Shown: one piece after another, positions 11,700-58,831 of the stretch | Layout of the letters: the number at the start of each line of letters is the position of its first letter | How positions within the stretch are numbered: the first letter of the stretch is position 1 | Assembly (NCBI GenBank): GCA_963727715.1 | Contig: CAVSGX010000004.1 | Span: forward strand, 8,455 to 72,454 | DNA: 64,000 nt | Reading direction: 5' to 3' | Source of the DNA: an uncultured bacterium | Lineage (GTDB): Bacteria > Patescibacteriota > Minisyncoccia > Phycocordibacterales > DATDWN01 | Translations under genes and position numbers: made by a program | Notes under the pieces: generated by a model | What the model saw: the letters and a program-made list of their open reading frames with translations, nothing else | Told to the model about the DNA's origin: nothing | The model's database searches: none

Positions 11700-13901
11700 T
11701 TATTGATTCTCTATCTGCTGAATGTATTGTTCCCCTTGTGTTTTGAAATCAGGTTGTTGAGTTATTATTTGGTTTATGAGGTCAATAGCCTTCTGTTTCT
11801 GTCCTATCTGCAAATAAGCTGAGGCCAAAGACAATTTGTATTGCAAGTTGGTTGGATCACTTTGCAAACGAGTGGACAAAATGGAAATGACATCTTGATA
11901 ATCATGGACTGCGGCATAAGTTTCCAAAAATCTGTTGTCGGAAATAATGACTTTCGGATCAATTTTTGATTCCATTTCTTTCAAAACATCCGGCTTTTTA
12001 TCATAAATCGCGCCAACAGCATAAATTATCTTTCCATCGGGAGAATCGGGGGCCAAATCGTAACCAGTCTGGAAAGCTTGAAAACCAGAATCATAATCCC
12101 CGGCCCCGATATAAGCCTGACCAAGAGCAAAGTATATGGAAGGTTTGTTTGGTGATTCAGCAGCAGCTCGTTTCAGATAAATCAGGGCTGTACTATATTG
12201 TCCGAAATTTCCGTAAAACTCGCCGGCAAAAAGCAAATAACGAGCATCATGCGGAGTGTTGGCAATTTTAATTTTAATCTGCTCCGCCCCAAGATTGTAG
12301 AATTGCTGTTTCAAATCGCTCGGCACTTGCTGGGAAGATTCAACTTGAGCAGAAAAAGAGACCATCTGTTCCAGAGCTTCGCTTGTGCCAAAAGAATTGT
12401 AACTGAAAACTTTTTTAAAATTCTGCAAATTGTTTGAGAGATCAGTAAGAGATTTTGGCGGAGTGATAGCCGAGATAAGAGTGACATTAGCCAAAATAGC
12501 TGGAACATTTATAAAATAGATTCCAGCCACGACCAAAATGGTGATAAGCGGAGCAAAAATATAGTTTTCACTGTCTTTGGAAAAAGTTTTGCTGTAAAAC
12601 TGGCCGGATGGTTTTTCATCGGCTGTGCTTCTGGTATGGACATAACCCAAAATAGAAAAGAACAAAATGTAACTTATGAGGTTGTCAAAGACGAAGAGAT
12701 TATGAAATACATAAGCGGCAATCATCCCGGTCAGAAGACTTTTTTCCGTCACAGACATCTTGCTCCCCCTTCTCCATATATAATAGAGTAGAGCGACATA
12801 CATTGAGGCATAAGCCAGAAAACCGACAATGCCTCCGGCTATGAGCCAATCCAAAACTATGTCGTGAGTGCGGTCAAACCACTGCTCCTGATTCCACATC
12901 CGCGTATCGTAATATTTGTTAAAGACAAAATTGAAACTTTCCTGCCCCCAGCCGAAAATCGGTCGTTCAATGACGCCTTTGACGGCCATAGGCCAAACAT
13001 AATAACGGCCCTGACTTTGAAGTTCCCCCAGACCCATTGAGGCAAAACGCGACAGAACCGGACTTTTCTGGACGAAAGAAACATTGCGAAGACTGATAAA
13101 ACTGACAATCAAAATGACAATGCCGATAAGCACGCCGTAAGCGGTTTTGCGCAAAGTTTTATTTTCTTTTTCTTTCCAAGCAACAATGATGGAAGCCAAA
13201 ACGAGACCGCCGATAAGGCCAAGAATCGCTCCCCTGGTGGCTGTGAAATACAGAATCCACGCTTCAAACAAAACCACCAAACCATAAATCCATTTTTGCC
13301 ATTTTTTGGTATCTTCTCGGAAGAAAAAATAAAGTGACAGGAAAATATTGAAAACCAGATAAATGGCCAGATAGGAAGCATTGCCAAGTGTGGCATCAAG
13401 TCTGACACCGCCTTGGTTGATTGTCAGCAAACCCAGAAGTTGCAAAGTCCCGTAAATAGACATCAGGACACTGGCCCCGATAGAGATGTTGAAAAATTGA
13501 TACCACCTTTTGGCGCTTTGAAAAACTCCGGTAGCCACAATGTAATAAAGAACAAGATGAAAAATCAAAACAAAACCTTCCATTCTTTCGTAGTTGCTCC
13601 ACAAACTTTTGTAAACATTGGCGGAAAGCAGATCGGCCACAAGCATTGCTCCGGCAAAAATAAGGATTGATTTGGTGATCCAGGACATTTTCGGTCGATA
13701 TTCGGGCGATATGACGCACAACATGGCATAAAGCCCGAACAAAATTTCAACTAAGATGCGAAAAACAAAACCTTTGCCGGAAATAAATGGGAAAAACATA
13801 TTGACTGGAACAAAAAAAGCGATGAACGGAACAAGAAACAGGCCGATTGTTGTGGCCCACAAAAGTGCGTTTTTGGTTTTCATATGGAAAGAGTATAGCA
13901 A
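11700..13901 (-). CDS. O-antigen ligase/polymerase-like membrane protein with C-terminal TPR repeats
   Basis: 733 aa, more than 10 TM segments. FTATRGAILGLIGGLVL resembles Wzy_C/O-antigen ligase loops. The C-terminal 250 aa or so has a TPR-like A/Y/G pattern (ALGQAYIGAGDYDSG, LASAYLQIGQKQKA). Confidence 0.65.
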   Translation of the reverse strand: MLYSFHMKTKNALLWATTIGLFLVPFIAFFVPVNMFFPFISGKGFVFRILVEILFGLYAMLCVISPEYRPKMSWITKSILIFAGAMLVADLLSANVYKSLWSNYERMEGFVLIFHLVLYYIVATGVFQSAKRWYQFFNISIGASVLMSIYGTLQLLGLLTINQGGVRLDATLGNASYLAIYLVFNIFLSLYFFFREDTKKWQKWIYGLVVLFEAWILYFTATRGAILGLIGGLVLASIIVAWKEKENKTLRKTAYGVLIGIVILIVSFISLRNVSFVQKSPVLSRFASMGLGELQSQGRYYVWPMAVKGVIERPIFGWGQESFNFVFNKYYDTRMWNQEQWFDRTHDIVLDWLIAGGIVGFLAYASMYVALLYYIWRRGSKMSVTEKSLLTGMIAAYVFHNLFVFDNLISYILFFSILGYVHTRSTADEKPSGQFYSKTFSKDSENYIFAPLITILVVAGIYFINVPAILANVTLISAITPPKSLTDLSNNLQNFKKVFSYNSFGTSEALEQMVSFSAQVESSQQVPSDLKQQFYNLGAEQIKIKIANTPHDARYLLFAGEFYGNFGQYSTALIYLKRAAAESPNKPSIYFALGQAYIGAGDYDSGFQAFQTGYDLAPDSPDGKIIYAVGAIYDKKPDVLKEMESKIDPKVIISDNRFLETYAAVHDYQDVISILSTRLQSDPTNLQYKLSLASAYLQIGQKQKAIDLINQIITQQPDFKTQGEQYIQQIENQ

Positions 13902-38594: not shown

Positions 38595-38660
38595 AAAAAT
38601 TCAAAATTCAAAAACAAAAGAAAAAACAAATCGACAAGAGACAAGCTACCTTTTTGGAAA
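38595..38660 (-). promoter_or_regulatory. Conserved 3' flank of a DGR variable repeat (copy A)
   Basis: aaaaattcaaaattcaaaaacaaaagaaaaaacaaatcgacaagagacaagctacctttttggaaa is identical to 40605-40670 and 43419-43484. Confidence 0.6.
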
Positions 38661-39650
38661 TCACAAGAACGAGCGGGAGAGGCGACCACCCAGAGGCGGA
38701 TGGGAACTGGACGGAGCATCGGCACGGACACCGAGCCGGGAACCGGCGGGGTTCCAATAGGCGCAGACGACACGAAAGGAAGATGGGGCGGTTTTGTCAG
38801 GGTTTGGCACTTTAGACCCGGGCAAAGCGGTCCAGTAGTATAGACCATCTTTCTCGTTTTTGGTGTCTATGTGCTTGCCTGTTTGTTCAAAGATTTTTCT
38901 TTGCAGGATGAGATAATCGGACAGAGTTAGAGATTGGTTCGGAGGCAAGGAGAGAAAGGTTTCAATCTTTTTGTTCAGAGTTTGTTTAAGCTCTGATTGT
39001 TGCCAGAGTTCTTGACTGTGGACTAGAACGATTCTTCTTTTTTTGTCTTCTATTACTCCTTCAAACCCGCCACCCGAGTTGAAATTGCTTCCGGTGTATG
39101 TTTCGTTGTATCCTTCCGACATTTTAGCGTTTAGGTCTGTCAGGTTTGGCAGAGTTTCCGGAATGAGCAGGATTGTGTCAAAACCGTGTTTTTCTATTTC
39201 TTCTCTGATTTGGTCAATGTTTCTTTCCCAGATGTTTTTCATCGTCTCGGAGAAGTCTTTCGGTCTGTCTATGGAGTGGGTTGTGTAAAAGGAAGTAAAG
39301 TATTCTATTTCTTTTTCAATATCTATGGTTATGGTTTCTTTCTTTTCTTCAGTGGTTGTTTTGCCGGTTTTTTCGTCTTTTGTCTCTTCGATATGTTTGT
39401 ATTCCACTTCTAGAGTTGTTGAGGATTTGCCTTCTATCTTTCTTTTGAGAGAACGGCATTGGGAGAGTGTTTCTTTGATTTTCAGGCTTAGTTCTTTCTG
39501 TTTCTCTGTATCTCCGCTCTCAATGGCTTTTAGGAGTTTATCTTTCATTTCTTCGGCCTGAGAGAGCAGGCCTTCCATTACGGTCAAGTCGGCCAGAGCT
39601 TGTTCTTTGGTTGGTGGAGAGTTTGGGATTTTGGGAGATTCGTGGGACAT
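38661..39650 (-). CDS. DGR target protein 1 (cytoplasmic, coiled-coil N-terminus, C-terminal variable CLec-like region)
   Basis: 329 aa. Identical to the 40671..41660 product except for the last 32 aa or so (VVCAYWNPAGSRLGVRADAPSSSHPPLGGRLSRSFL), which overlie the VR. Confidence 0.85.
   Translation of the reverse strand: MSHESPKIPNSPPTKEQALADLTVMEGLLSQAEEMKDKLLKAIESGDTEKQKELSLKIKETLSQCRSLKRKIEGKSSTTLEVEYKHIEETKDEKTGKTTTEEKKETITIDIEKEIEYFTSFYTTHSIDRPKDFSETMKNIWERNIDQIREEIEKHGFDTILLIPETLPNLTDLNAKMSEGYNETYTGSNFNSGGGFEGVIEDKKRRIVLVHSQELWQQSELKQTLNKKIETFLSLPPNQSLTLSDYLILQRKIFEQTGKHIDTKNEKDGLYYWTALPGSKVPNPDKTAPSSFRVVCAYWNPAGSRLGVRADAPSSSHPPLGGRLSRSFL
38664..38771 (-). repeat. DGR variable repeat VR-A
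   Basis: Aligns to the TR (43071-43177). By hand count it differs at 15 TR-adenine positions plus one non-A position (tgt>ggt). Confidence 0.85.
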
Positions 39651-39666
39651 AATGGATGGATGATAA

Positions 39667-40347
39667 TCAGTCTAATTTTATTAATTTCTTTGTCAGAACA
39701 GGAATTTCTTTTTGAAAAAAAGTTTTGACCGAATTCCAATCAGCGTCAAAAAAGATGACCGGCTCTGGATCGCTTTCGGCATCGTCAAAATAAACCATAC
39801 TTTTCAAGATATGGTGATAGTCGTGAGCCACAGACGGATACTGTCCCGGCAATCGTCTGATAATATTTTCCAGCGGTTCCACATTTTTGGCGCACCAGTA
39901 CAAATCAAAGAAATCTCTTTTTCTGCCTCTTTGCGAGCTGGCGATTATTTTCATCACGGCCACATCCGTTTTATTCAAAATTTTGACAAAACCGTATTCC
40001 AAAAATTTTTGTTTTGGAATAAAAAACGGATAAGCGATAAAACTGATTTTGGTGTCATACAATACGCCATATAAAGTGTTTGGTTCATCAATATCCGTGC
40101 TCCAATTTTCATTGCTTGCAAAACGAGATAACAGTTTCTTTGTTATAAAACTTTTTTCTGTGGTAAAAAAATCCAAATCAACAGATTTGCGATTGCCGGC
40201 CTGCAAAGCTAAGGCGGTGCCACCGGCCAGATACCAGCCTGATTCACTCAGCCATTCTTGGGTTGATAAAAAATCCAGAGCTGTTTTGGTTGATTTGGGT
40301 AAACATGAAAAGTTGATGATATTTAATTTTGAAGTGTCAGTGTCCAT
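39667..40347 (-). CDS. Nucleotidyltransferase AbiEii/AbiGii-like toxin family protein
   Basis: WYLAGGTALALQAGNRKSVDLDFFT is the family N-terminal signature. Confidence 0.65.
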   Translation of the reverse strand: MDTDTSKLNIINFSCLPKSTKTALDFLSTQEWLSESGWYLAGGTALALQAGNRKSVDLDFFTTEKSFITKKLLSRFASNENWSTDIDEPNTLYGVLYDTKISFIAYPFFIPKQKFLEYGFVKILNKTDVAVMKIIASSQRGRKRDFFDLYWCAKNVEPLENIIRRLPGQYPSVAHDYHHILKSMVYFDDAESDPEPVIFFDADWNSVKTFFQKEIPVLTKKLIKLD

Positions 40348-40547
40348 AATGCTTTTGTTCTTGGTCTCAAAGACCGTGATGCAGAAACAACTTTTCTCAA
40401 CAATGCCTTGTCATAAAAATTCCAAAGCCAGCGAACCTCATTATCCCTGCCAAAATCTAAAATTCTCTCAATTATATATTGAGCGTTTTTTTCAGTGTCA
40501 ATTCTGCTGACATCGGTGTCCCAAAACAAAGATTGTCTAAATGGCAT
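40323..40547 (-). CDS. Small partner protein of the AbiEii-like NTase (putative antitoxin-like)
   Basis: 74 aa. LFWDTDVSRIDTEKNAQYIIERILDFG pattern. Overlaps the NTase start by 25 nt, which suggests translational coupling. Confidence 0.5.
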   Translation of the reverse strand: MPFRQSLFWDTDVSRIDTEKNAQYIIERILDFGRDNEVRWLWNFYDKALLRKVVSASRSLRPRTKALWTLTLQN

Positions 40548-40670
40548 ACCTTCATTATATCAAATTTTGAGACAATATTCAACAAAAATCAAAATGCAAA
40601 AATAAAAAATTCAAAATTCAAAAACAAAAGAAAAAACAAATCGACAAGAGACAAGCTACCTTTTTGGAAA

Positions 40671-41660
40671 TCACAAGAACGAGCGGGAGAGGCGACCACC
40701 CAGAGGCGGATTGGAAATGGACGGATCATTGGCAACGACATTGAGCTGGGAACCGTCGGGGTACCAATGGGCGCAGACGACACGAAAGGAAGATGGGGCG
40801 GTTTTGTCAGGGTTTGGCACTTTAGACCCGGGCAAAGCGGTCCAGTAGTATAGACCATCTTTCTCGTTTTTGGTGTCTATGTGCTTGCCTGTTTGTTCAA
40901 AGATTTTTCTTTGCAGGATGAGATAATCGGACAGAGTTAGAGATTGGTTCGGAGGCAAGGAGAGAAAGGTTTCAATCTTTTTGTTCAGAGTTTGTTTAAG
41001 CTCTGATTGTTGCCAGAGTTCTTGACTGTGGACTAGAACGATTCTTCTTTTTTTGTCTTCTATTACTCCTTCAAACCCGCCACCCGAGTTGAAATTGCTT
41101 CCGGTGTATGTTTCGTTGTATCCTTCCGACATTTTAGCGTTTAGGTCTGTCAGGTTTGGCAGAGTTTCCGGAATGAGCAGGATTGTGTCAAAACCGTGTT
41201 TTTCTATTTCTTCTCTGATTTGGTCAATGTTTCTTTCCCAGATGTTTTTCATCGTCTCGGAGAAGTCTTTCGGTCTGTCTATGGAGTGGGTTGTGTAAAA
41301 GGAAGTAAAGTATTCTATTTCTTTTTCAATATCTATGGTTATGGTTTCTTTCTTTTCTTCAGTGGTTGTTTTGCCGGTTTTTTCGTCTTTTGTCTCTTCG
41401 ATATGTTTGTATTCCACTTCTAGAGTTGTTGAGGATTTGCCTTCTATCTTTCTTTTGAGAGAACGGCATTGGGAGAGTGTTTCTTTGATTTTCAGGCTTA
41501 GTTCTTTCTGTTTCTCTGTATCTCCGCTCTCAATGGCTTTTAGGAGTTTATCTTTCATTTCTTCGGCCTGAGAGAGCAGGCCTTCCATTACGGTCAAGTC
41601 GGCCAGAGCTTGTTCTTTGGTTGGTGGAGAGTTTGGGATTTTGGGAGATTCGTGGGACAT
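40671..41660 (-). CDS. DGR target protein 2 (paralog of target 1)
   Basis: 329 aa. C-terminus VVCAHWYPDGSQLNVVANDPSISNPPLGGRLSRSFL. Confidence 0.85.
   Translation of the reverse strand: MSHESPKIPNSPPTKEQALADLTVMEGLLSQAEEMKDKLLKAIESGDTEKQKELSLKIKETLSQCRSLKRKIEGKSSTTLEVEYKHIEETKDEKTGKTTTEEKKETITIDIEKEIEYFTSFYTTHSIDRPKDFSETMKNIWERNIDQIREEIEKHGFDTILLIPETLPNLTDLNAKMSEGYNETYTGSNFNSGGGFEGVIEDKKRRIVLVHSQELWQQSELKQTLNKKIETFLSLPPNQSLTLSDYLILQRKIFEQTGKHIDTKNEKDGLYYWTALPGSKVPNPDKTAPSSFRVVCAHWYPDGSQLNVVANDPSISNPPLGGRLSRSFL
40674..40781 (-). repeat. DGR variable repeat VR-B
   Basis: Differs from the TR at 9 adenine positions (hand count) plus the same tgt>ggt change. Confidence 0.85.
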
Positions 41661-41672
41661 GGAAGTATTCTA

Positions 41673-42700
41673 TCATGTTATAACAATATCATTCAATATT
41701 GAAGTCAGTTTGTTTTTTAATCCAAATGAATCGCAGTGTTTCAGTAAAGCAAAATAAGACTGAAAATTATTCTTGTTCATTCTTTCAAAAATTTTTTGCT
41801 TGGTTTTATCTCTCAATAAAAGACAATCTGGCAAAGTCAGAGATCCTAGAAAATCTACTCCCCATTTTAATTTTCTGATTGAGATTTTATCATCCGGGAT
41901 TTGCAGAAACAGTTTTGCCATAAATTTTTTAATTTCAACCAAACAAAACCCCAATCTTTTTTTATTTTTATTTACCAAAATAAAATCGTCGTTGTATCTT
42001 ATATAAAATCTGGCGTTTAATTTTTTCTTCACAAAATGGTCAAAATCGTTCAAATAAATGTTGGCGAAAATCTGGCTGGTGATGTTGCCGAGCGGGATGC
42101 TTTTGTCAGAGCCATGAAGCGAGCAAAAACTTTCTACTATTTTCCCCACTTCCAAAAAAATATTTTCATTTTTCACTTTTCTTTTGATAAATTTCAGCAG
42201 TAGGCGGTGGTTGACACTTTCAAAGTATTTTTTGACATCGCATTTTAAAATAAAAACATCCCCATTTTTTCTTTTCGCCAATCCATTGAAATATTGGAGA
42301 GTTTTGACGGCTTTATGCGTTCCTTTTCCGTCTCTGGATGAATAACGGCTTTATGCGTTCCTTTTCCGTCTCTGGATGAATATGAGTCGGCAATAAATGC
42401 CGGCTCAAATAGATTTTTCAAATAATCGGATATTATTTGATGAATAATTCTATCTTTAACTTCAGCTTTGTGAATATTTCTTTTCTTGTTGTCAGTAACA
42501 ATAAAATGCGAATACCCGCCATGGCGGTAAGTTTTGTTTTTCAGATCTCTGTGCAAATCAAAAATATTGTCTTCCAAATGTCTTTCAAAAATCATTACAT
42601 CCATCTTGGAGGACTTTCCCCGCCGAAATTTCCGCCAAGCTGAAAATATATTATCAAGACTGAATAATTCGTTATAATTTTTATGGAACAAGACGCTCAT
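41673..42700 (-). pseudogene. DGR reverse transcriptase, frame broken by a 38-bp tandem duplication
   Basis: Motifs SYSSRDGKGTHKAV, FILKCDVKKYFESVNH, IPLGNITSQIFANIYLN (DGR-type GxxxSQ) and YIRYNDDFILV (YxDD). Deleting one copy of 42307-42344 restores a 329-codon ORF. Confidence 0.85.
42307..42382. repeat. Perfect 38-bp tandem duplication inside the RT gene
   Basis: acggctttatgcgttccttttccgtctctggatgaata occurs twice in a row (42307-42344 and 42345-42382). Confidence 0.9.
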
Positions 42701-42718
42701 AAAATTGAAAAATTGGAA

Positions 42719-43057
42719 ATGCCTATTATGGCCAAACTCTTTATCATTTACGAACTGACGCACAAGCTTATTTTCAAATTGCCGAAATTTGAAAGATACA
42801 CTTTGGGTGAAAAAATTGAAAATATCATCTTGGAAACGATTGAAATAATTGTCATCGCCAATGGGACGAACAAATACGAAAAAGAAAAATATTTGCTCAA
42901 AGCCAATGCCAAAGTGGAAATGCTTAAGTTGCTTTTTCGCATCGTTTTGAACTGCCAAATCATTGATTTCAAAAAATATTTGGAGGCGGAAGGGTTGCTT
43001 CAAGAAATCGGCAAAATGGCGCAAGGTTGGATAAAATACACCAGAAACGCAAAATAG
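42719..43057 (+). CDS. avd: DGR accessory variability determinant (four-helix-bundle, 23S rRNA-IVS-protein family)
   Basis: MPIMAKLFIIYELTHKLIFKLPKFERYTLGEKIENIILETIEIIVIA...LLQEIGKMAQGWIKY matches the Avd/four-helix-bundle pattern. It is on the opposite strand to the RT, TR and targets. The start could be 42683, 42719 or 42728. Confidence 0.7.
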   Translation: MPIMAKLFIIYELTHKLIFKLPKFERYTLGEKIENIILETIEIIVIANGTNKYEKEKYLLKANAKVEMLKLLFRIVLNCQIIDFKKYLEAEGLLQEIGKMAQGWIKYTRNAK

Positions 43058-43070
43058 CTTTTGTATAAAG

Positions 43071-43177
43071 CAAGAACGGCGGGAGAGGCGACAACCCAGA
43101 TTCGGATTGGAATTGGACGGATCATTGGCATTGACATTGAGCTGGGAATTGTCGGGGTTCCAATTGGCGCAGACGAC
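43071..43177 (-). repeat. DGR template repeat (TR)
   Basis: Sense (minus) strand: gtcgtctgcgcc AAT tgg AAC ccc gAc AAT tcc cAg ctc AAT gtc AAT gcc AAT gAt ccg tcc AAT tcc AAT ccg AAT ctgggttgtcgcctctcccgc. It holds 21 adenines, mostly in AAT codons. All three VRs vary at these positions. Confidence 0.9.
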
Positions 43178-43409
43178 TGCGGTCGCCCCTCGATTAGCTT
43201 TGCGTCGTCATTTCCGTTTGGAAACAAGACTCTATTTATTAGGGGCTACTTCCCCCTGACGCAAAACTGCTGTTCTTGTGTTTTATTTCCACAAATCAAC
43301 GACTATTTGGTTTCTAAAATTCAGAAACCATCTTTCGCCGTCAATTAGCGCTTCGGCAAACCAACTCATCACTGATGGCTTACGAGCCGAAGCGGGCGAT
43401 TTTTGCTTC
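43178..43409 (-). other. Structured non-coding spacer between target 3 and the TR (candidate 5' part of the TR RNA)
   Basis: Nested stems: ttgcgtc..gacgcaa, gggg/cccc, tttcc/ggaaa, ggtttct/agaaacc and gcgcttcggc/gccgaagcg. A minus-strand TTGACG-17-AATTTT promoter-like signal is present. Confidence 0.4.
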
Positions 43410-43484
43410 GCAAAAATAAAAAATTCAAAATTCAAAAACAAAAGAAAAAACAAATCGACAAGAGACAAGCTACCTTTTTGGAAA

Positions 43485-45512
43485 TCACAAGAACGAGCGG
43501 GAGAGGCGACAACCCAGATTCGGATAGGAATAGGACGGATCATCGGCACCGACAACGAGCTGGGAATAGCCGGGGTCCCAATGGGCGCAGACGACGCGGA
43601 AACCGCCGGATGGATTTTTGACTGTTGAGCCGGGTAGCCATGTCCAACCGTCTTCATCCAAATGTTTGCCTGTTTGTTCAAAATATTGCTTTTGATACAA
43701 CAAATAATCTGTCAGAGACATTTTTTCACCTTGCGATATAAACTCCTCGGCTTTTTTATTCAGAGTTTTCTTCAGTTCCGAATGGTCTTTCAGATTTTGA
43801 GCGCTGTTTTTATGAATCAAAACGATTCTTCTTTTTTTGTCTTCTATTACTCCTTCAAACCCGCCACCCGAGTCGAAATTGCTTCCGGTGTATGTTTCGT
43901 TGTATCCTTCTGACATTTTTTTATGTATATCGGTTATGGTCAATCCTCCGGGCACAAGCAAAATCTCATCAAAACCATATTTTTCTACTTCTTGTTTTAT
44001 CTCGTCATAATTGTTCACCCATATATCCGCCATTTCTTCCGCAAATGATTCCGTCAATTCAATTTCGTGAGCTTTATAAAAAAGAAGAGAATCCTCAAGT
44101 TTTTTGTCAAAATTTATTTCTATTTTCTCTTTCTTTTCTTTGCCTTTCTCGTCCACGATTTTGTGTTCGGCAGAAACCACCGGTTCAAACGAACTGCCGG
44201 TCAATTCTCTTCTTTTACTTCTGAAAAATTTCTCCAAATCGGCTATTTCATTTTCAATCTTCTCTATCCCGTCCGCCGGACTTTCGGTTTTACCACCTTC
44301 AGGAATTGCCTCAGCAGACGCTTCTTTTTCTTCTTCGTTATTTTTCTTTTTTCTTTTCGTTCCTTTGCGTTTGGAATCTTTGGTTTCTATTTTGACTTCA
44401 ACCAATCGGATGATTTCTTCCAATTTTGTTCTGTCTTCGGCGCTTTCCAGTCTGTTGACATAATAATATTTCAGGGCTTTTTGAAAAGTTTCGCTGATGT
44501 CGCCATTGTAAAAACGCAAAACAAAATTTCTGACCCGCCTCGGCTCTTCGCGGTCGTCATAGGTGAAAACTTGTGGTTGATCTTCGGCGATTTGCCTGTT
44601 TTTCAAAAGTTCTTTGGCGGTTTTGTGAAATTCCTTGTATTTTTCCAAAATTTCGGCAATGCCTGGAATTTCCGAAAGTTGTTCCTGCGTCAAACCACCG
44701 GCGCCGGATAAAAACATATCATCAGGCAATTCGGCGGTTTTCTTTTCCAAACCGTTCTCTAAACCAAACAATGCACCAGTCGCTTGCTTAAAGGTCTCTT
44801 CCGGTAATTCATTTGGCATTTTTTTATAAACCCATCTGCGAAGCTGAGCTGGATCAAGTGGCTTTCTATCCAAATAACCGGCTCCCGGAGGATTCATAAA
44901 AGCGATGATTTTGGTTTTTTGTTTAGAAACTTTAACTGTTTCCGAAGCGTCTTCTGACAAAATGACATCGCTATCACGCTCCAGAGAATCCAAAACTTCA
45001 TGCAAACGAATCAAAATGTTCGGCGCCGATGAGTTGAATTCGTCCAAAACAATAATTTTGACTTTACCGTCTTCCTGTCGTAAACCGCTAGTTACTTTTC
45101 CGTCGGCGAAAATGTATTCCGGGTCTTCCGCATTATTTTTACGAGGATTTGGTATATATCGGCCCATCAAATCCTCCACATCCGTGGCACCGTTTAAGTT
45201 TATGTAATGAACTTCGTAGCCGAGCTCACTGGCCATTTTTCGCACCGTGGTGGTCTTACCAAAAGATGTTCCGCTTTCCACGGCAATAGGGTCGCCCATG
45301 GAAAACGACACGGCGATGTCACGTTGCAGTGGCAGAGCCACTTCGGTATCATTGGTGTAGTCCTTGTAATTTTCTCTTCTTGGCACAAATTGGCCATTTC
45401 TGTTTTTAGCTTTTTCCAGAGTAACACCCATATAAGAAACACTCCCGTCAGTTTCCATTATCGGCTCCAGTTTTGCTTCCGGATTGTTAAATTGTCCTTC
45501 TGGTGTTTTCAT
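43485..45512 (-). CDS. DGR target protein 3: AAA+ (MoxR/AAA_5-like) ATPase fused to the target C-terminal module
   Basis: 675 aa. GTSFGKTTTV Walker A, IIVLDEFNS Walker B. The C-terminal 230 aa or so is homologous to targets 1/2 (KMSEGYNETYTGSNF.SGGGFEGVIEDKKRRIVL). It ends VVCAHWDPGYSQLVVGADDPSYSYPNLGCRLSRSFL. Confidence 0.85.
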   Translation of the reverse strand: MKTPEGQFNNPEAKLEPIMETDGSVSYMGVTLEKAKNRNGQFVPRRENYKDYTNDTEVALPLQRDIAVSFSMGDPIAVESGTSFGKTTTVRKMASELGYEVHYINLNGATDVEDLMGRYIPNPRKNNAEDPEYIFADGKVTSGLRQEDGKVKIIVLDEFNSSAPNILIRLHEVLDSLERDSDVILSEDASETVKVSKQKTKIIAFMNPPGAGYLDRKPLDPAQLRRWVYKKMPNELPEETFKQATGALFGLENGLEKKTAELPDDMFLSGAGGLTQEQLSEIPGIAEILEKYKEFHKTAKELLKNRQIAEDQPQVFTYDDREEPRRVRNFVLRFYNGDISETFQKALKYYYVNRLESAEDRTKLEEIIRLVEVKIETKDSKRKGTKRKKKNNEEEKEASAEAIPEGGKTESPADGIEKIENEIADLEKFFRSKRRELTGSSFEPVVSAEHKIVDEKGKEKKEKIEINFDKKLEDSLLFYKAHEIELTESFAEEMADIWVNNYDEIKQEVEKYGFDEILLVPGGLTITDIHKKMSEGYNETYTGSNFDSGGGFEGVIEDKKRRIVLIHKNSAQNLKDHSELKKTLNKKAEEFISQGEKMSLTDYLLYQKQYFEQTGKHLDEDGWTWLPGSTVKNPSGGFRVVCAHWDPGYSQLVVGADDPSYSYPNLGCRLSRSFL
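43488..43595 (-). repeat. DGR variable repeat VR-C
   Basis: Differs from the TR at 11 positions, all TR adenines (hand count). Confidence 0.9.
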
Positions 45513-53281: not shown

Positions 53282-54296
53282 CTTTGAAGTAGGACAGTTA
53301 GAATTAATGCATTAGTCGAAAATTAATTTTAATTGTCATATGAAAAACAAATATCATCATTTGTCTTTTGAAGAGAGGTTTTGTATTGAAAAGATGTATT
53401 GCGCCGGTTCGGCCATTCGCAAAATTGCCGAATTTCTCGGTCGGAGTGTCAACACTGTGAGCAGAGAAATACAAAAACACAGTGTTAATGGGGTGTATGA
53501 AGCGGAAAAAGCCAAGCAGAAAGTTTCAATGAAAAGATGGCGAGCCAAACAGCAGTGTCTGAAAGTGGCGCTTGACCCGTTTCTCTGTCGATTCGTGGTG
53601 GAACGATTAACCAAGCCGTATCATTGGTCGCCGAAGCAGATTAGCGGGTATCTTGAATGTGAAATGGGTATCATCTGCTCGGCCAAAGCCATATACAAAT
53701 TTGCCGAGTCGAGAGGTCTAAACCACCTGCTTTTTTGGGGTTGGAACAATCACAAGGGTGGGAGAAAACGAAATCATTGGAAGCACATTCAGGATGGCAG
53801 GAAGTATATTGATGTCAGACCGGAGAGAAAAGGTCTAGGACACATTGAGCTCGATTTCATCGTTTCCAAAGACAGTTCGTGGGTACTTTTGGTTGCTGTG
53901 GATTGGCAAGCCAAAAGAACATGGGTCAGGAAACTGCCCAACAGAAAACGCGACACTATTCGTGCCGCGCTTTCCCGTCTGTTCCATGGTGTTGAATTGA
54001 AGAGCATCACCACAGACAACGATATTGCATTCACCTGTTGGAAAGAGTTGGAAACTCTCCTGCAAGTGCCAATCTATTTTACACATCCATACCATTCTTG
54101 GGAAAAAGGTCTGGTGGAAAACACCAACAGATGGATCAGATGTTTTGTGCCTAAACGAAGAGATATTGAGTCAGTCACTGAGGAAGAATTGCAAGAAATA
54201 CATTCCTTCCTAAACAACCGACCGAGAGAAGTGATTGGCTTCCGCGCGCCAATGAGTTATTATTCAAACATTAGTTCTGTCCTACTTGAGGGGTAA
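53281..54296 (+). mobile_element. IS30-family insertion sequence
   Basis: Transposase ORF plus imperfect terminal inverted repeats. Left: ..gaagtaggacagttagaattaatg (53286 onward). Right reverse complement: ..caagtaggacagaactaatg (ending about 54293). Confidence 0.75.
53340..54296 (+). CDS. IS30-family transposase
   Basis: 318 aa. N-terminal HTH (HLSFEERFCIEKMYCAGSAIRKIAEFLGRSVNTVSREI) and a DDE core (..ELDFIV..TTDNDIAF..PYHSWEKGLVENTN). Confidence 0.9.
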   Translation: MKNKYHHLSFEERFCIEKMYCAGSAIRKIAEFLGRSVNTVSREIQKHSVNGVYEAEKAKQKVSMKRWRAKQQCLKVALDPFLCRFVVERLTKPYHWSPKQISGYLECEMGIICSAKAIYKFAESRGLNHLLFWGWNNHKGGRKRNHWKHIQDGRKYIDVRPERKGLGHIELDFIVSKDSSWVLLVAVDWQAKRTWVRKLPNRKRDTIRAALSRLFHGVELKSITTDNDIAFTCWKELETLLQVPIYFTHPYHSWEKGLVENTNRWIRCFVPKRRDIESVTEEELQEIHSFLNNRPREVIGFRAPMSYYSNISSVLLEG

Positions 54297-54353: not shown

Positions 54354-54427
54354 TGCGCGTGCCAGGACTCGAACCTGGGACCTCGTCATTATCAGTGACG
54401 TGCTCTAGCCACCTGAGCTACACGCGC
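54354..54427 (-). tRNA. tRNA-Ile (anticodon GAU), CCA not encoded
   Basis: Minus sense: GCGCGTG TAGCTCAGGTGGCTAGAGCA CGTCA CTGATAA TGACG AGGTC CCAGG TTCGAGT CCTGG CACGCGC A. All four arms pair. Confidence 0.9.
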
Positions 54428-54468: not shown

Positions 54469-54470
54469 AC

Positions 54471-54498
54471 AAAAAAGGTCAGAGGGGACAAGCCCTCT
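54471..54498 (-). terminator. Intrinsic terminator after the small membrane-protein gene
   Basis: agaggg/ccctct stem (54481-54498), then a T-run on the minus strand. Confidence 0.55.
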
Positions 54499-54721
54499 AA
54501 CCCCGAGAATAAGGATGATTTTCCTTTTTCAAAATCTTGTATTCTAAAAAACCATAACCAAAAAGCAAAATGAGACAAACAATGAAAAAGATAAGCGACC
54601 GAAGTGGCTCCTTGGGATCGATGGGTTCCAATTTGTTTGGGAATCCTATACAAACCACAACACAAATCGCCACCGCTAGTAAAATCGGTATTCTGATTTT
54701 TTTTAGTGTACTAAGACTCAT
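54497..54721 (-). CDS. Small two-TM membrane protein between 16S and tRNA-Ile
   Basis: 74 aa from the ATG at 54721, preceded by GGAGG (54729-54733). MSLSTLKKIRIPILLAVAICVVVCIGF..LIFFIVCLILLFGYGF. Confidence 0.5.
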   Translation of the reverse strand: MSLSTLKKIRIPILLAVAICVVVCIGFPNKLEPIDPKEPLRSLIFFIVCLILLFGYGFLEYKILKKENHPYSRG

Positions 54722-54740
54722 AGGTGAACCTCCACATAGA

Positions 54741-54770
54741 ACTATATCATACTTTGTCCACAAAAGTCAA
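54741..54770 (-). promoter_or_regulatory. Promoter of the small membrane-protein gene
   Basis: Minus sense: TTGACT, 18 nt, TATAGT (with a TGn-like extension). Confidence 0.45.
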
Positions 54771-54787
54771 GTATAAATTTTTATACG

Positions 54788-54815
54788 AAAAAACCACTTT
54801 GTTTAGCGGTTTTTT
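54788..54815 (-). terminator. Probable terminator of the 16S transcription unit
   Basis: Minus sense: AACCGC-UAAACAAA-GUGGUU, then UUUU. Confidence 0.45.
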
Positions 54816-54864: not shown

Positions 54865-54867
54865 TTG

Positions 54868-54887
54868 TCCTTTATTTTGTTCCGTTC
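54868..54887 (-). promoter_or_regulatory. 3' strand of the 16S precursor processing stem
   Basis: tcctttattttgttccgttc is the perfect reverse complement of 58617-58636. Confidence 0.7.
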
Positions 54888-55380
54888 ACCCGAGTCTTTC
54901 CTCGGTGTCAAACTGTTTTAGGACGCACAGTCATCGTCCATTGTCTGCTCAATTGAGGCAGGCAATATCGACTCAATCGTTCGACACATTCTAGGAACGC
55001 GCCGGACTTCTCGATCAGAGACCGAGAGTTTTTCAAATTGAATTATTCCACGACCAGCTTCCGCTAGCCGTGCCTTGTTACGACTTAGTCTTTGTCATTG
55101 AGCTTACCTTGGTGCCGCAAAAACGACGCTTCGGGTATTCCCAACTCCCCTGACTTGACGGGCGGATTTCGATAACTTTCGTTTCAGGTTCCCTGAAGTT
55201 TTTAACTTCACCATATCGCTTCCCGTTATTCACGACTTTGGACGTAGCGAGCGGATTTCCCGCACTACGCGAGTTCGATAGTTTCTAGAACTAACGATTT
55301 TGTCCTTCATTTTGTTTTTCAACAAAACTACTACGACGCAGCTGACTTCCAGCACTAATTTTTGGAGTCAAGATTTTCAC

Positions 55381-55407
55381 TTGACAAACACATTTTTTTC
55401 TTATTAT
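55381..55407 (+). promoter_or_regulatory. Promoter-like signal in E1
   Basis: TTGACA (55381-55386) within the hairpin gtcaag..cttgac, followed by TATTAT 15 nt downstream. Confidence 0.35.
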
Positions 55408-55426
55408 TTCATAGGAGGTACTTCGT

Positions 55427-55534
55427 ATGCACATATTTGAGGTTTTTGTATGTGTTGTTTTGGCAATCATGTTTCTTCCTTTGCCAATTTTCTTTTTGCG
55501 TTTTATTGCTTGTATAATAACTGATGCTGATTAA
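55427..55534 (+). CDS. 35-aa hydrophobic peptide (type-I-toxin-like), candidate
   Basis: AGGAGG (55413-55418), 8 nt, then ATG. MHIFEVFVCVVLAIMFLPLPIFFLRFIACIITDAD, TAA stop. Too short for the ORF track. Confidence 0.4.
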   Translation: MHIFEVFVCVVLAIMFLPLPIFFLRFIACIITDAD

Positions 55535-55558
55535 ATCTAATCAGTTATTAGTCGACTT

Positions 55559-55590
55559 GAGTGATTTTGTCAAATCACTCTTTTCTTTTT
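55559..55590 (+). terminator. Intrinsic terminator of the E1 cassette
   Basis: gagtgattt-tgtc-aaatcactc (9-bp stem), then ttttcttttt. Confidence 0.55.
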
Positions 55591-56087
55591 CCAAAAATTA
55601 GTGCTGGATCTCCCAGGGTCATTTATATTTCTGTTCCAAACATCCGAATCGAGATTTTCGATAAGATTTATCGTGTGCTTCCTTCTGACTCACCGCAGAA
55701 GTCGCACATCTCTTTTTTTTGATTCGGCTGCTCTTTGCTACTAGGATCCTTCAGTCCAGTCATTGCTGATTGTGGACCTACCCGTTCGCTATTTTCACAC
55801 TCCTGTGAAAAGTTGGATTTGAACCAACTAGATATATAAACTGCCTGGCGCATTTTATTCTGAGTACAAGACTTGAGAACGTATTCACCGCGGTATGTCT
55901 GACCCGCGATTACTAGCAATTCCAACTTCATGGGGTCGAGTTTCAGCCCCCAATCTGAACTGGGGCGACTTTTCTAAGGATTGGCTCAGGGTTACCCCGT
56001 CGCAACCTGTTGTAGTCGCCATTGTATTATGTGTGTAGCCCAAGGTATCAAAGGGACATGCTGATCTGGCGTCATCCTCGCCTTCCT

Positions 56088-57403: not shown

Positions 57404-57509
57404 ATAATTTTAAGTTAATTGCACGACGACAGAATAGCACCAACTATCTTACTCAATTTCATAGTCTCTACGGGGTTTCTAGCACTAATTTTTGGAGTCA
57501 AGCTTTGAC

Positions 57510-57538
57510 TTGACAAGATTCATTTTATGATTTAACAT
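57510..57538 (+). promoter_or_regulatory. Promoter-like signal in E2
   Basis: TTGACA (57510-57515), 17 nt, TAACAT (57533-57538). The -35 box overlaps the hairpin gtcaag..cttgac. Confidence 0.4.
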
Positions 57539-57559
57539 CAATTCCAGGAGATTAACTCG

Positions 57560-57679
57560 ATGGAATTTATTATGATATTGATCTGTTTAGGAGTTTTTTG
57601 TTTGATCACAGATATGATGATAACTGTTGCTATTGATATCTGTGAATGGATCGATCATTACCTGCACCGGCTTTTATAG
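57560..57679 (+). CDS. 39-aa hydrophobic peptide (type-I-toxin-like), candidate
   Basis: AGGAG (57546-57550), 9 nt, then ATG. MEFIMILICLGVFCLITDMMITVAIDICEWIDHYLHRLL, TAG stop. Confidence 0.4.
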   Translation: MEFIMILICLGVFCLITDMMITVAIDICEWIDHYLHRLL

Positions 57680-57697
57680 CGGTGCAGTTTTCTTTTT
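57662..57697 (+). terminator. Intrinsic terminator of the E2 cassette
   Basis: ctgcaccg..cggtgcag stem overlapping the stop codon, then ttttcttttt. Confidence 0.55.
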
Positions 57698-58616
57698 CCA
57701 AAAATTAGTGCTAGAAACTTCCCTCGGGGTTGTCCATACGAAATCAGTAAATTTCATATTGTATGGAGTTTCCCCGATATAGCTAGATTACAATTCTATG
57801 TCACCATAGAAAAGAGACACCTTCGTCCTATATTTTATTAGCGGGACTGGATTATCTAATCCCATTCGCTACCCACGCTTTCGTGTTTCAGTGTCAGGAG
57901 TGGCCCAATGTGCTGCCTTCGCTTTCGGTGTTCCCCATGATATCAACGGATTTCACCCCTACTCCATGAGTTCCACACATCCCTGCCATCCTCTAGTCGT
58001 GCCGTTTCGCTCGCACTTCCGGGGTTAAGCCCCGGGTTTTAACAAGCGACTAACACAACCACCTACACACCCTTTACGCCCAATAATTCCGGATAACGCT
58101 CGGGGCACTCGTATTACCGCTGCTGCTGGCACGAGTTTAGCAACCCCTTATTCTTGAGGTACTATCAATAAACTTTCTCCCTCACAAAAGATGTTTACGA
58201 CCCAGAGGGTCTTCATCCATCACGCGGCGTCGCTCGATCAGGCTTTCGCCCATTGTCGAATATTCTCGGCTGCTGCCACCCGTAGGTGTATGGACCGTCT
58301 CTCAGTTCCATCGGTGGGGGCCAAGCTCTCACTCCCCCTACGCGTCATAGCCTTGGTAGGCCGTTACCCTACCAACTAGCTGATACGACGCAGACTTTTC
58401 CTTTAGCGATAAATCTTTCCTCCGAAGAGAATATCAAGTATTACCTAATCTTTCGACTAGCTATTCCTGACTAAAGGGTAAATCTCTGCGCATTATTACC
58501 TCGTTCGCCACTGTCCTTGCGGACCGTTTGACTTGCATGCCTTATCCACGCCGCCAGCGTTCATCCTGAGCTAGGATCAAACTCTTAATAAAGATTTATT
58601 AAGATCTATCTTTTAA

Positions 58617-58636
58617 GAACGGAACAAAATAAAGGA
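58617..58636 (-). promoter_or_regulatory. 5' strand of the 16S precursor processing stem
   Basis: gaacggaacaaaataaagga is complementary to 54868-54887. Confidence 0.7.
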
Positions 58637-58831
58637 AAATACTTTTGGTATCGCGATTATTTTATTTTTCTTTGATGAACACTGATTGTGTTTTTGGTTG
58701 ATTGTTATTGATGTTGTGAATTTTGCTGAATTCACTTTCCGGAATTATTTTAAAAGAATATTTTGCATCCGACTGTTTTTGACAAAACAGCCGAACTGTA
58801 AAACTTGCACGTTTTACATTCTCTAAATAAA

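Follow-up and report, generated by a model that had tools for sequence, protein, structure and literature searches.

Two antisense cassettes in an interrupted 16S rRNA gene

The 64,000-nucleotide stretch of contig CAVSGX010000004.1 analysed here (the window), from an uncultured member of the Patescibacteriota, carries on its minus strand a 16S ribosomal RNA (rRNA) gene that runs from 58592 to about 55030 and is matched by Rfam in separate pieces. The gene is interrupted twice, and within each insertion lies a short cassette that is bounded by terminal inverted repeats (TIRs) and reads antisense to the rRNA. These two cassettes, E1 (55348-55608, 261 bp) and E2 (57475-57718), and the family to which they belong are the subject of this study. 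With the junctions read from the sequence, the exons span 58592-57854, 56553-55861 and 55165 to about 55030. The first exon ends at U57854 and is followed by intron 1, a group I intron of 1300 nt at about 16S position 790 (57853 to 56554, minus strand; the 5′ exon ends in U and the intron in G). Intron 1 holds E2 and a 253-aa open reading frame (ORF; 57403 to 56642, minus strand) for a LAGLIDADG homing endonuclease, a protein in whose homologs PF03161 is found. The second insertion, 695 nt long (55860 to 55166, minus strand), lies at about E. coli position 1392, where it splits TGTACTCA|CCGCCCGTC; this group II-like insertion harbors E1 and contains no large ORF. Its Rfam match to group-II-D1D4 is weak, and comparable matches occur in two of the related loci described below, L115 and the homologous L067. 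Group II-like insertions in 16S genes of the Candidate Phyla Radiation (CPR) have been placed at the same position 1392 site (Tsurumaki et al., 2024; PMC11270868), and the window is accordingly assigned to a CPR (Patescibacteria) genome. By eye, a D5-like hairpin can also be recognized in this insertion (55242-55270, minus strand; GCGUAGUGCGG-GAAA-UCCGCUCGCUACGU), with a CGC triad and a 3′-side bulge as in group IIC introns, and it partly mimics the start of the downstream exon as a direct repeat.

On the plus strand, E1 opens with its left TIR (55348-55366), 19 nt that are 100% complementary to the right TIR (55590-55608). The family core of this repeat is AGCACTAATTTTTGGA, 16 nt found in all 28 cassettes introduced below, and the outer TCC of E1 belongs to the host stem. 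A subterminal hairpin, GTCAAG-attttca-CTTGAC (55367-55385), then overlaps a TTGACA −35 box (55381-55386) and is followed by a −10-like box, TATTAT (55402-55407), with a spacer of 15 nt that is sub-optimal against the family norm of 17 ± 1 nt. Next come a Shine-Dalgarno (SD)-like AGGAGG (55413-55418), 8 nt before the ATG at 55427, and an ORF of 35 aa (55427-55534) whose peptide, MHIFEVFVCVVLAIMFLPLPIFFLRFIACIITDAD, has one transmembrane segment by Kyte-Doolittle analysis and an acidic C-terminus. An intrinsic terminator (55559-55590) closes the unit, with a 9-bp stem GAGTGATTT/AAATCACTC at 55559-55580 leading into TTTTCTTTTT. An extra 10-bp hairpin, AATAACTGAT...ATCAGTTATT (55517-55549), spans the stop codon and was found in both folds, and in the fold of the E1 sense RNA the TIRs form a 19-bp closing helix (z = −8.3). 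The original prediction, made from the letters of the window alone, had described a complete mini-gene antisense to the rRNA, and every signal it named, from the fully complementary repeat through hairpin, promoter boxes, AGGAGG, ATG and ORF to the terminator, was found on the plus strand where it had been placed.

E2 is built in the same way. Its TIRs (57475-57496 and 57697-57718) are 22 nt long and 100% complementary, and enclose a promoter, TTGACA-17-TAACAT (57510-57538), that was called by a promoter scan, an SD motif AGGAG (57546-57550), an ORF of 39 aa (57560-57679), and a terminator (57662-57697) whose stem (57662-57669 and 57680-57687) leads into a T-run; all of these lie on the plus strand. 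Like that of E1, the peptide has a single transmembrane segment (Kyte-Doolittle) and a charged C-terminus. As had been proposed, E2 is a second copy with shared ends and unrelated cargo: the ends common to the two cassettes measure 22-30 nt and 25-28 nt, and the window has four exact copies of the 15-mer CCAAAAATTAGTGCT, where 0.42 matches would be expected by chance even with up to two mismatches allowed, so that the sharing of ends is far beyond chance. A resemblance between the two peptides (IITDAD and MITVAID) was considered and dismissed as too weak for homology, and blastn found no similarity between the cargos.

Census, hosts and architecture of the cassette family

The ends shared by E1 and E2 had been suggested as a probe for further copies, and this search brought at least 26 additional non-redundant ones. 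When one genome of each GTDB species was scanned with the pattern AGCACTAATTTTTGGAR, at least 11 loci showed both arms 200-345 bp apart, and a scan of Joint Genome Institute (JGI) metagenomes with GCACTAATTTTTGGADTCAA gave 30 loci, 24 of them true and 6 due to chance. The non-redundant set thus comprises at least 28 cassettes including E1 and E2, plus one copy cut by a contig end; all counts below refer to the 28 cassettes collected and to the 23 curated ORFs among them. Since two collection scans alone yielded this number, the true family is probably much larger. The other pattern matches that were inspected (the six metagenome loci, and matches in CPR, Gracilibacteria and other metagenome-assembled genomes) lay outside rRNA genes and were single-arm or had no cassette interior. 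Among the matches listed, the remaining single-arm genome matches, which were not read individually, had no second arm in range, and 18 single-arm matches in viral contigs were taken as chance without inspection. One of the loci fetched (L071, 1150-1190), in an intergenic region of a contig labelled as Omnitrophota and devoid of an rRNA gene, holds a hairpin of repeat-like arms, CCCAGCACTAATTTTTGG-aacaa-CTAAAAACTAGTGCTGGG, with nothing else between them, which may represent a solo repeat pair, an empty one, or a chance match.

For all cassettes collected whose context was readable, the host according to Rfam is an insertion in a CPR 16S gene (L052, L059, L067, L109, L115, L138, L142, L154, L161, L165 and L167) or 23S gene (L037, L050, L097, L118, L145, L147, L149, L151 and L162), and in every cassette with a readable host orientation the promoter strand is opposite to the rRNA. 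By flank sequence there are 16 contexts, which reduce to about four unrelated host structures. The first is one particular loop in a family of related group I introns, which occur at several sites in 16S and 23S genes, with the flanks CC(G/C)NGGGAAGU...ACCCCGUA; the second is the group II-like intron at 16S position 1392, occupied in E1, L119, L138, L165, L167, L154, L076, L067 and L142; the third is a site in the 5′ region of the 23S gene (L037, L151); and the fourth is that of L115. L142 had been considered as an independent nearby insertion site and was rejected as such, since the site is the same and only the host stem is longer. These different intron types and rRNA genes have identical 16-nt ends in their cassettes.

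In these hosts the cassette sits at the tip of a hairpin. Three positions outside the TIR are paired in 44 of the 48 cells given by the 16 flank contexts, with four pair types, a result reached by none of 10,000 shuffles. E2 itself lies in the terminal loop of the intron 1 hairpin GGGAAGUUUCU...AGAAACCCC, and homologous introns, recovered with homologs of the window's LAGLIDADG protein as anchors, reveal the same site in its empty state: in L168 and L169 it reads GGGAAGTTGCC-TCGTC-GGCAACCCCGTAGAGAC, with a loop of 5 nt, at the place where the window has GTTTCT[cassette]AGAAAC, and in L175 it is a 24-nt hairpin with no cassette. Fillers of 45 nt (L176), 108 nt (L177) and 176 nt (L178) occupy the same loop in other relatives, so that the host loop is hypervariable in length among related introns, ranging from 16 to 176 nt. 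We take the host hairpin of E2 to be probably P6, because it follows the P4-P5 region; this label is our own reading of the sequence, the Rfam alignment of the empty-site intron covering its 3′ half only. The possibility that the stems are simply peripheral helices of a known intron model, which the original prediction had named as an objection, was rejected, given that they prolong a host hairpin that is short (16-24 nt) and cassette-free in homologous introns, and that the same TIR occurs in group I and group II-like hosts.

The same group I loop also receives other kinds of insert. Cassettes of a second type, oriented in the rRNA sense, were seen in L170 and L171 (about 1660-1930) and in L173 and L174 (about 1686-1938); their repeat is GTGAATTTCAT(T/G)GAGG / CCTC(A/C)ATGAAATTCAC, with an SD motif in the inner end of the 5′ arm, and their cargo consists of small variable ORFs; that of L170 encodes 60 aa and two transmembrane segments, that of L173 a basic peptide of 54 aa. 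By eye, no −35 box and no hairpin with a T-run was recognized in these four sense-oriented cassettes. A third repeat type, GTAAGTTTCAAATAGGA, is found in that loop in L172 (about 700-905).

Within the family of E1 the architecture is constant. All 28 cassettes, 204-371 bp in total length and with only a small ORF inside, follow the order 16-nt TIR, hairpin with −35 box, spacer of 16-18 nt, −10 box, leader, cargo, terminator and TIR. In the hairpin GTCAAG-loop-CTTGACA, the TTGACA is exact in 25 of the 28 and stands at a constant distance from the TIR, and changes in the stem are compensated in three copies (L050, L138 and L149); the −10 box fits TAnnnT in 25 of 28. Just before the right TIR, every copy has a G+C-rich hairpin and a T-run, with folding energies from −7 to −25 kcal/mol and a different stem sequence in each, and the T-run lies 3′ of the hairpin on one strand only. 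The curated ORFs, 25-74 codons long, start with ATG in 22 of 23 cases, 29-53 nt past the −35 box, and have a GGAGG-type SD motif 4-12 nt upstream of the start in 20, the other three looking leaderless. Their pooled codon composition is coding-like (G at 0.30, 0.18 and 0.21 in positions 1, 2 and 3), and the longest ORF of the promoter strand exceeds that of the reverse strand in 24 of the 28 cassettes, with means of 45 and 30 aa, respectively, against 26 aa in shuffled sequence. In L052 (5148-5406) an SD-led ORF meets no stop codon ahead of the right repeat and extends beyond the cassette.

Given this uniformity, it is hardly credible that there is no independent element at all, and that E1 is an expansion segment of an intron helix whose signals arose by chance in A+T-rich sequence. 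Promoter-like sites in the window alone are indeed not enriched (9 against 7.6 in shuffles), and the hypervariable length of the host loop would also suit such an explanation. It leaves out of account, however, the strand-specific signal order repeated in 28 copies with unrelated interiors, the one-sided T-run, the excess of ORF length over shuffles and reverse strand, and the identity of the ends across intron types and rRNA genes.

The cassette might instead be a device acting in cis, whose antisense RNA or TIR helix would supply double-stranded RNA to RNase III and so control intron excision, endonuclease expression or pre-rRNA processing, the ORFs being incidental. Conservation of promoter, terminator and repeats around a varying and sometimes non-coding cargo would agree with this, as would the position of E2, 72 nt upstream of the homing-endonuclease start, and the perfect helix of 19-22 bp, a plausible substrate of RNase III. 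We nevertheless hold this to be very unlikely, as 20-23 of the 28 cassettes have an SD motif, an ATG and an open frame of coding-like composition at a fixed position, the host intron of E1 has no endonuclease gene, and homologous introns manage without a cassette.

Cargo and its exchange

The cargo is as variable as its frame is constant. A transmembrane segment is predicted in 14 of the 23 curated ORFs (Kyte-Doolittle) and absent from nine, eight of which are hydrophilic, among them those of L059, L109, L115, L145, L147, L149 and L162; L067 has no ORF, and that of L037 is doubtful. Two cassettes, L151 (about 13287-13533, minus strand) and L155 (921-1165, plus strand), carry instead a structured RNA. 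It is about 165 nt long, folds at −75 and −71 kcal/mol, respectively, and shows at least five compensatory double substitutions and additional G-U pairs on the promoter strand; probably the cassette has here a new small RNA as cargo. Neither this RNA nor any cassette as a whole is covered by an Rfam family, and weak Rfam matches at cassette ends, to PhrS in L159 and to group II D1-D4, were judged chance or host-derived and set aside.

None of the peptides submitted to Pfam (20) and NCBIfam (10) reached the cutoff for any family, including the known type I toxin families (Hok, Ldr, Fst, Ibs, TisB and others). The E2 peptide, searched against 1.84 billion representative proteins, and those of L162 and L149, searched against 5.8 billion, matched nothing but themselves, and cluster look-ups gave a single sequence each, save one longer start-site variant of the L059 peptide; the exact E1 peptide is absent from the protein collection. 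Several identical cargo peptides recur on 13-27 contigs and are thus stable within populations. One orphan cargo, P0121, was predicted without an alignment to adopt a beta-alpha-beta-beta fold (predicted local distance difference test, pLDDT, 77), for which no match below E = 0.1 was found in the PDB, and the prediction for P0130 (pLDDT 46) was uninformative.

These cargos bear directly on the proposal that E1 and E2 are type I toxin-antitoxin or addiction modules, in which a membrane toxin would be held in check by the pre-rRNA intron transcript acting as antitoxin, so as to stabilize the intron or cassette or to arrest growth when rRNA synthesis stops. The two peptides of the window (35 and 39 aa, each with one transmembrane segment and a charged C-terminus) look the part, as do the further members that bring the transmembrane count to 14 of 23; the antisense position of every readable copy guarantees a complementary RNA by geometry; and the lack of matches is not decisive, type I toxins being notorious for having no detectable homologs. 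Against it stand the eight hydrophilic cargos, the structured RNA of L151 and L155, the missing ORF of L067, the failure of Pfam and NCBIfam to report any toxin, and the short 5′ untranslated regions with an exposed SD motif, in contrast to the leaders typical of known type I toxin mRNAs, which are long, structured and translationally inert. The orientation is moreover accounted for by terminator polarity, as discussed below, and toxin and antitoxin would always be lost together. The rRNA operon is typically single-copy in the CPR. Toxin and pre-rRNA antitoxin are therefore not supported as an explanation of the arrangement in general, and misfit the family; for E1 and E2, where they would be a special case of a broader gating by rRNA transcription, we think them quite improbable. 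The expectation that other copies would keep an intact ORF and SD motif was mostly borne out, and the accompanying one, that their products would stay hydrophobic, was not general.

The most direct evidence of mobility comes from near-identical introns with different cargo. Between E2 and L161 the two flanks match at 98.4% over 249 nt and at 100% over 250 nt, and between E2 and L109 at 95% and 100%; L037 and L151 agree at 99-100% across the best-aligned 98-124 nt per side, L076 and L154 at 94-95%, and L139 and L147 at 93-94%, although in this last pair the right flank aligns over no more than its first 70 nt. Between the −35 box and the terminator, blastn with a word size of 7 detected no similarity in any of these five pairs. 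Similarity ends about 20-45 nt inside the left end and returns at the T-run. In the lineage of L154, L076 and L067 the left end is identical up to TTGACA and the rest differs, which suggests crossovers inside the conserved ends. The sole pair of alignable cargos, that of L151 and L155 (86% over 153 nt), lies at different host sites, in a 23S and a 16S gene, and the G+C content of the cargo is uncorrelated with that of its flank (r = −0.02). In a separate observation, L147 and L154 have unrelated ORFs and nearly the same terminator stem (GCCAGC..GCTGGC), which suggests that cassettes are mosaics.

Because cargo differs within flanks that are 95-100% identical, empty sites exist, and one cargo is found at two sites, we conclude from these sequence comparisons that E1 is a mobile or exchangeable cassette, that is, one which appears to be gained, lost or exchanged, as a whole or as cargo, in one unit. 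The suggestion of a miniature mobile element, put forward for E1 at the outset, is thereby upheld in a broad sense. In the narrow sense E1 would be a non-autonomous DNA transposon, such as a miniature inverted-repeat transposable element (MITE) or mobile insertion cassette, whose 16-bp TIRs are recognized by a transposase encoded elsewhere, with the mini-genes as passengers and the rRNA-intron loops as the sole tolerated sites. The perfect and strictly conserved TIRs around a variable interior would fit, and so would presence and absence at a defined site, the same cargo at two sites, the two copies in one genome, and the isolated repeat-like hairpin of L071 in a locus without rRNA. On the other hand, no target-site duplications are found, no autonomous element with these ends occurs among the 167 loci fetched by pattern (a search that was not exhaustive), and the IS30-like gene beside the operon has no matching ends. 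The inheritance of the left end up to the −35 box together with the flank, while the cargo differs, further points to crossovers inside the element and not to its whole replacement, and the interiors are non-homologous, unlike those of MITE families. We therefore regard a transposon in this strict sense as unlikely.

Interpretation, translation signals and genomic surroundings

Putting these observations together, we consider it probable that E1 belongs to a family of cassettes housed by the self-splicing rRNA introns of CPR bacteria of the Parcubacteria type, where they occupy the terminal loops of peripheral hairpins, and that each cassette is an exchangeable antisense expression unit. In the pre-rRNA, the paired TIRs (19-22 bp) would merely lengthen the host hairpin, so that the ribozyme could fold whatever the cargo. 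Exchange would most likely proceed by recombination in the conserved ends, of which the left measures about 45 nt and the right about 28 nt. An insertion in sense orientation would be eliminated, since its intrinsic terminator would truncate the rRNA transcript and abort rRNA synthesis, which would explain the constant antisense orientation; the sense-oriented second family, in which no terminator was recognized by eye, would fit the same logic. Each cassette would act as an autonomous transcription unit with a small orphan product, for E1 a single-pass membrane peptide of 35 aa. It would fire head-on into the most heavily transcribed operon of the cell, and its RNA would be perfectly complementary to an abundant intron RNA. 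Because of such convergent interference and of the complementary intron RNA, the product would be expected mainly when rRNA synthesis drops, a logic resembling that of type I systems but with no need for a toxin as cargo.

Several points weigh against this interpretation. Promoter use, translation and orientation-dependent termination are all predicted from sequence, and the promoter of E1 was missed by the promoter scan because its TATTAT spacer is only 15 nt. Constant orientation alone is weak statistical evidence, as only about four structurally unrelated host contexts are represented. No target-site duplications were found around the cassettes, the flanks being inverted complements and not direct repeats, and no recombinase or transposase is linked to them; for both these reasons the mechanism of exchange is a guess. 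Every cargo tested is an orphan that has no relatives for measuring purifying selection, so that no test by the ratio of nonsynonymous to synonymous substitutions (dN/dS) is possible. The translation signals add a further difficulty. The 3′ tail of the window's 16S gene (about 55025-55086, minus strand) reads GGTCGTGGAATAATTCAATTTG, and no CCUCC anti-SD sequence occurs between this tail and the tRNA gene downstream. Host genes lack SD motifs: of the long ORFs, 1 of 47 has one in the window, and 7 of about 79 in the other cassette loci. The missing anti-SD weakens the claim of efficient translation in this host.

The same deficiency extends to eight other cassette hosts with a readable 16S 3′ end (L052, L115, L119, L154, L156, L158, L165 and L167), which share with the window the tail GGAAUAAUUCAAUUUG and have no CCUCC, and the host of an empty-site intron, a member of the Doudnabacteria, has the canonical tail GGATCACCTCCTT. 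In the window, a TATAAT-like box lies 5-13 nt before the ATG in 16 of the 47 ORFs and −35 boxes are rare there, which suggests that host mRNAs may be leaderless. The SD motif and perfect −35 box of the cassettes are thus foreign in style to their hosts, and mini-genes bearing SD motifs in hosts without an anti-SD pose a sharp question about translation start in this clade.

A comparison with known systems shows partial likenesses only. Type I modules such as hok/sok, ldr/rdl, ibs/sib and fst resemble E1 in their short single-pass hydrophobic ORF with its own promoter and terminator, and the cassettes in general in the complementary RNA expected from the opposite strand and the repeated short units. 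Their antitoxin is a dedicated small RNA, however, whereas the RNA complementary to a cassette is an rRNA intron, and the cassettes differ further in that the cargo is not conserved and often hydrophilic or non-coding, long inhibitory leaders are missing, and no homology to a toxin family was found in the peptides scanned. MITEs and mobile insertion cassettes (the Correia elements of Neisseria, the Rickettsia palindromic elements and MIC231) are likewise small, bounded by TIRs and devoid of a transposase; they may sit in transcribed or RNA genes, their repeats fold as hairpins, and some carry promoters or passengers. Apart from the missing target-site duplication and the unrelated interiors, the present cassettes are set apart from them in that each copy is a complete promoter-ORF-terminator unit, all collected copies lie in rRNA-intron hairpin loops in a single orientation, and there is no known autonomous partner.

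Phage morons are also single small genes, inserted as independent transcription units in a foreign setting, with a sigma-70-type promoter and an intrinsic terminator of their own, as the cassettes have by sequence, and with expression signals that do not match their surroundings, but they lie between prophage genes without TIRs or a fixed docking site, and not in ribozyme introns of rRNA genes. ORFs borne by introns, such as homing-endonuclease genes, share with the cassettes the state of a foreign insert in a peripheral loop that still allows the core to fold and whose presence varies, and antisense homing-endonuclease genes have been described in nuclear L2066 introns (PMC9548176); the cassettes, by contrast, encode 25-74 aa or an RNA in place of an endonuclease, have their own promoter and terminator and a conserved TIR, and are exchanged between introns that are otherwise identical. 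Integron cassettes offer the parallel of a fixed platform on which diverse, mostly orphan short genes are swapped as units, but they usually have no promoter, whereas the present cassettes bring their own, have repeats at both ends, and occur one per site in an intron; attC and attI sites are not apparent in them, and the gene lists of the loci showed no integrase gene, though no search aimed at either was made. Finally, yeast TAR1 and the mitochondrial humanin and MOTS-c are small proteins from rRNA loci, TAR1 being antisense as well, yet they overlap the mature rRNA and are fixed and conserved, unlike the intronic, mobile and hypervariable cassettes.

As the defining tests fail for a MITE, a moron, a known type I toxin family and a plain intron helix, we propose from sequence that the cassettes are a new kind of element, with a mechanism that is partly shown. 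The most comprehensive survey of CPR rRNA insertions (PMC11270868) makes no mention of inverted repeats, antisense genes, promoters or terminators, nor does a survey of tRNA introns in Patescibacteria (PMC13011429). The TIR sequence occurs in no indexed paper and topical literature searches found no description, in agreement with the earlier remark that no description of such an arrangement was known.

CPR bacteria (Patescibacteria) tolerate many introns in a single rRNA operon in spite of their tiny genomes. If the cassettes are what we propose, their rRNA introns would be platforms for a second layer of mobile cargo, beyond selfish ribozymes with homing endonucleases. More tentatively, and with less confidence than we give to the cassette family itself, CPR rRNA introns could be hosts of a new exchangeable cassette class, in which the 16-bp TIR, a consensus promoter and a terminator would form a docking structure for a changing set of orphan micro-proteins, mostly membrane peptides, and small RNAs. 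The TIR helix would insulate the cassette from the ribozyme, rRNA transcription would gate it inversely, by head-on interference and complementarity to the intron RNA, and a perfect −35 box and a strong SD motif would serve as host-independent signals where the ribosomes have no anti-SD. The whole would form a hypervariable locus of conflict or adaptation riding on homing introns, which for their part spread among CPR lineages, and the cargo might include, for example, toxins, immunity functions or host-interaction peptides. Cassettes turn over faster than their host introns accumulate 1-5% sequence divergence, which makes rapid exchange, and possibly the de novo birth of small genes, testable in uncultivated bacteria. 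A cassette that is transcribed against the strongest transcription unit of the cell, and whose RNA is complementary to that of this unit, would amount to a built-in regulatory design. Roughly two dozen predicted micro-proteins that had escaped annotation, and at least one new structured small RNA, are recovered with the family.

The surroundings of the interrupted gene hold several further features. A 23-nt inverted repeat, 96% complementary (54865-54887 and 58617-58639), encloses the entire 16S gene and presumably forms the stem at which RNase III processes the pre-16S RNA. A tRNA-Ile gene (54354-54427) was found by Rfam, and no 23S gene lies downstream within the window, so the rRNA operon appears interrupted or split. 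Adjoining the tRNA gene is an ORF of 318 aa (53340-54296, plus strand) that, judged from its sequence and not by Pfam, resembles a transposase of the IS30 family; the TIR sequence of the cassettes has no match near it, even with two mismatches. Between 16S and tRNA-Ile, in the rRNA-sense orientation, lies a small gene (54470-54770, minus strand) with TTGACT-18-TATAGT, a GGAGG and an ATG at 54721, whose ORF of 74 aa has two hydrophobic segments and a stop at 54497, with a terminator at about 54470-54498; a terminator-like hairpin with a T-run (about 54786-54812) precedes this gene. Elsewhere in the window (38595-43919, minus strand), three paralogous gene copies share blocks of 99-300 nt at 65-100% identity (38595/40605/43419 and 39027/41037/43821), forming a small multigene family with conserved ends.

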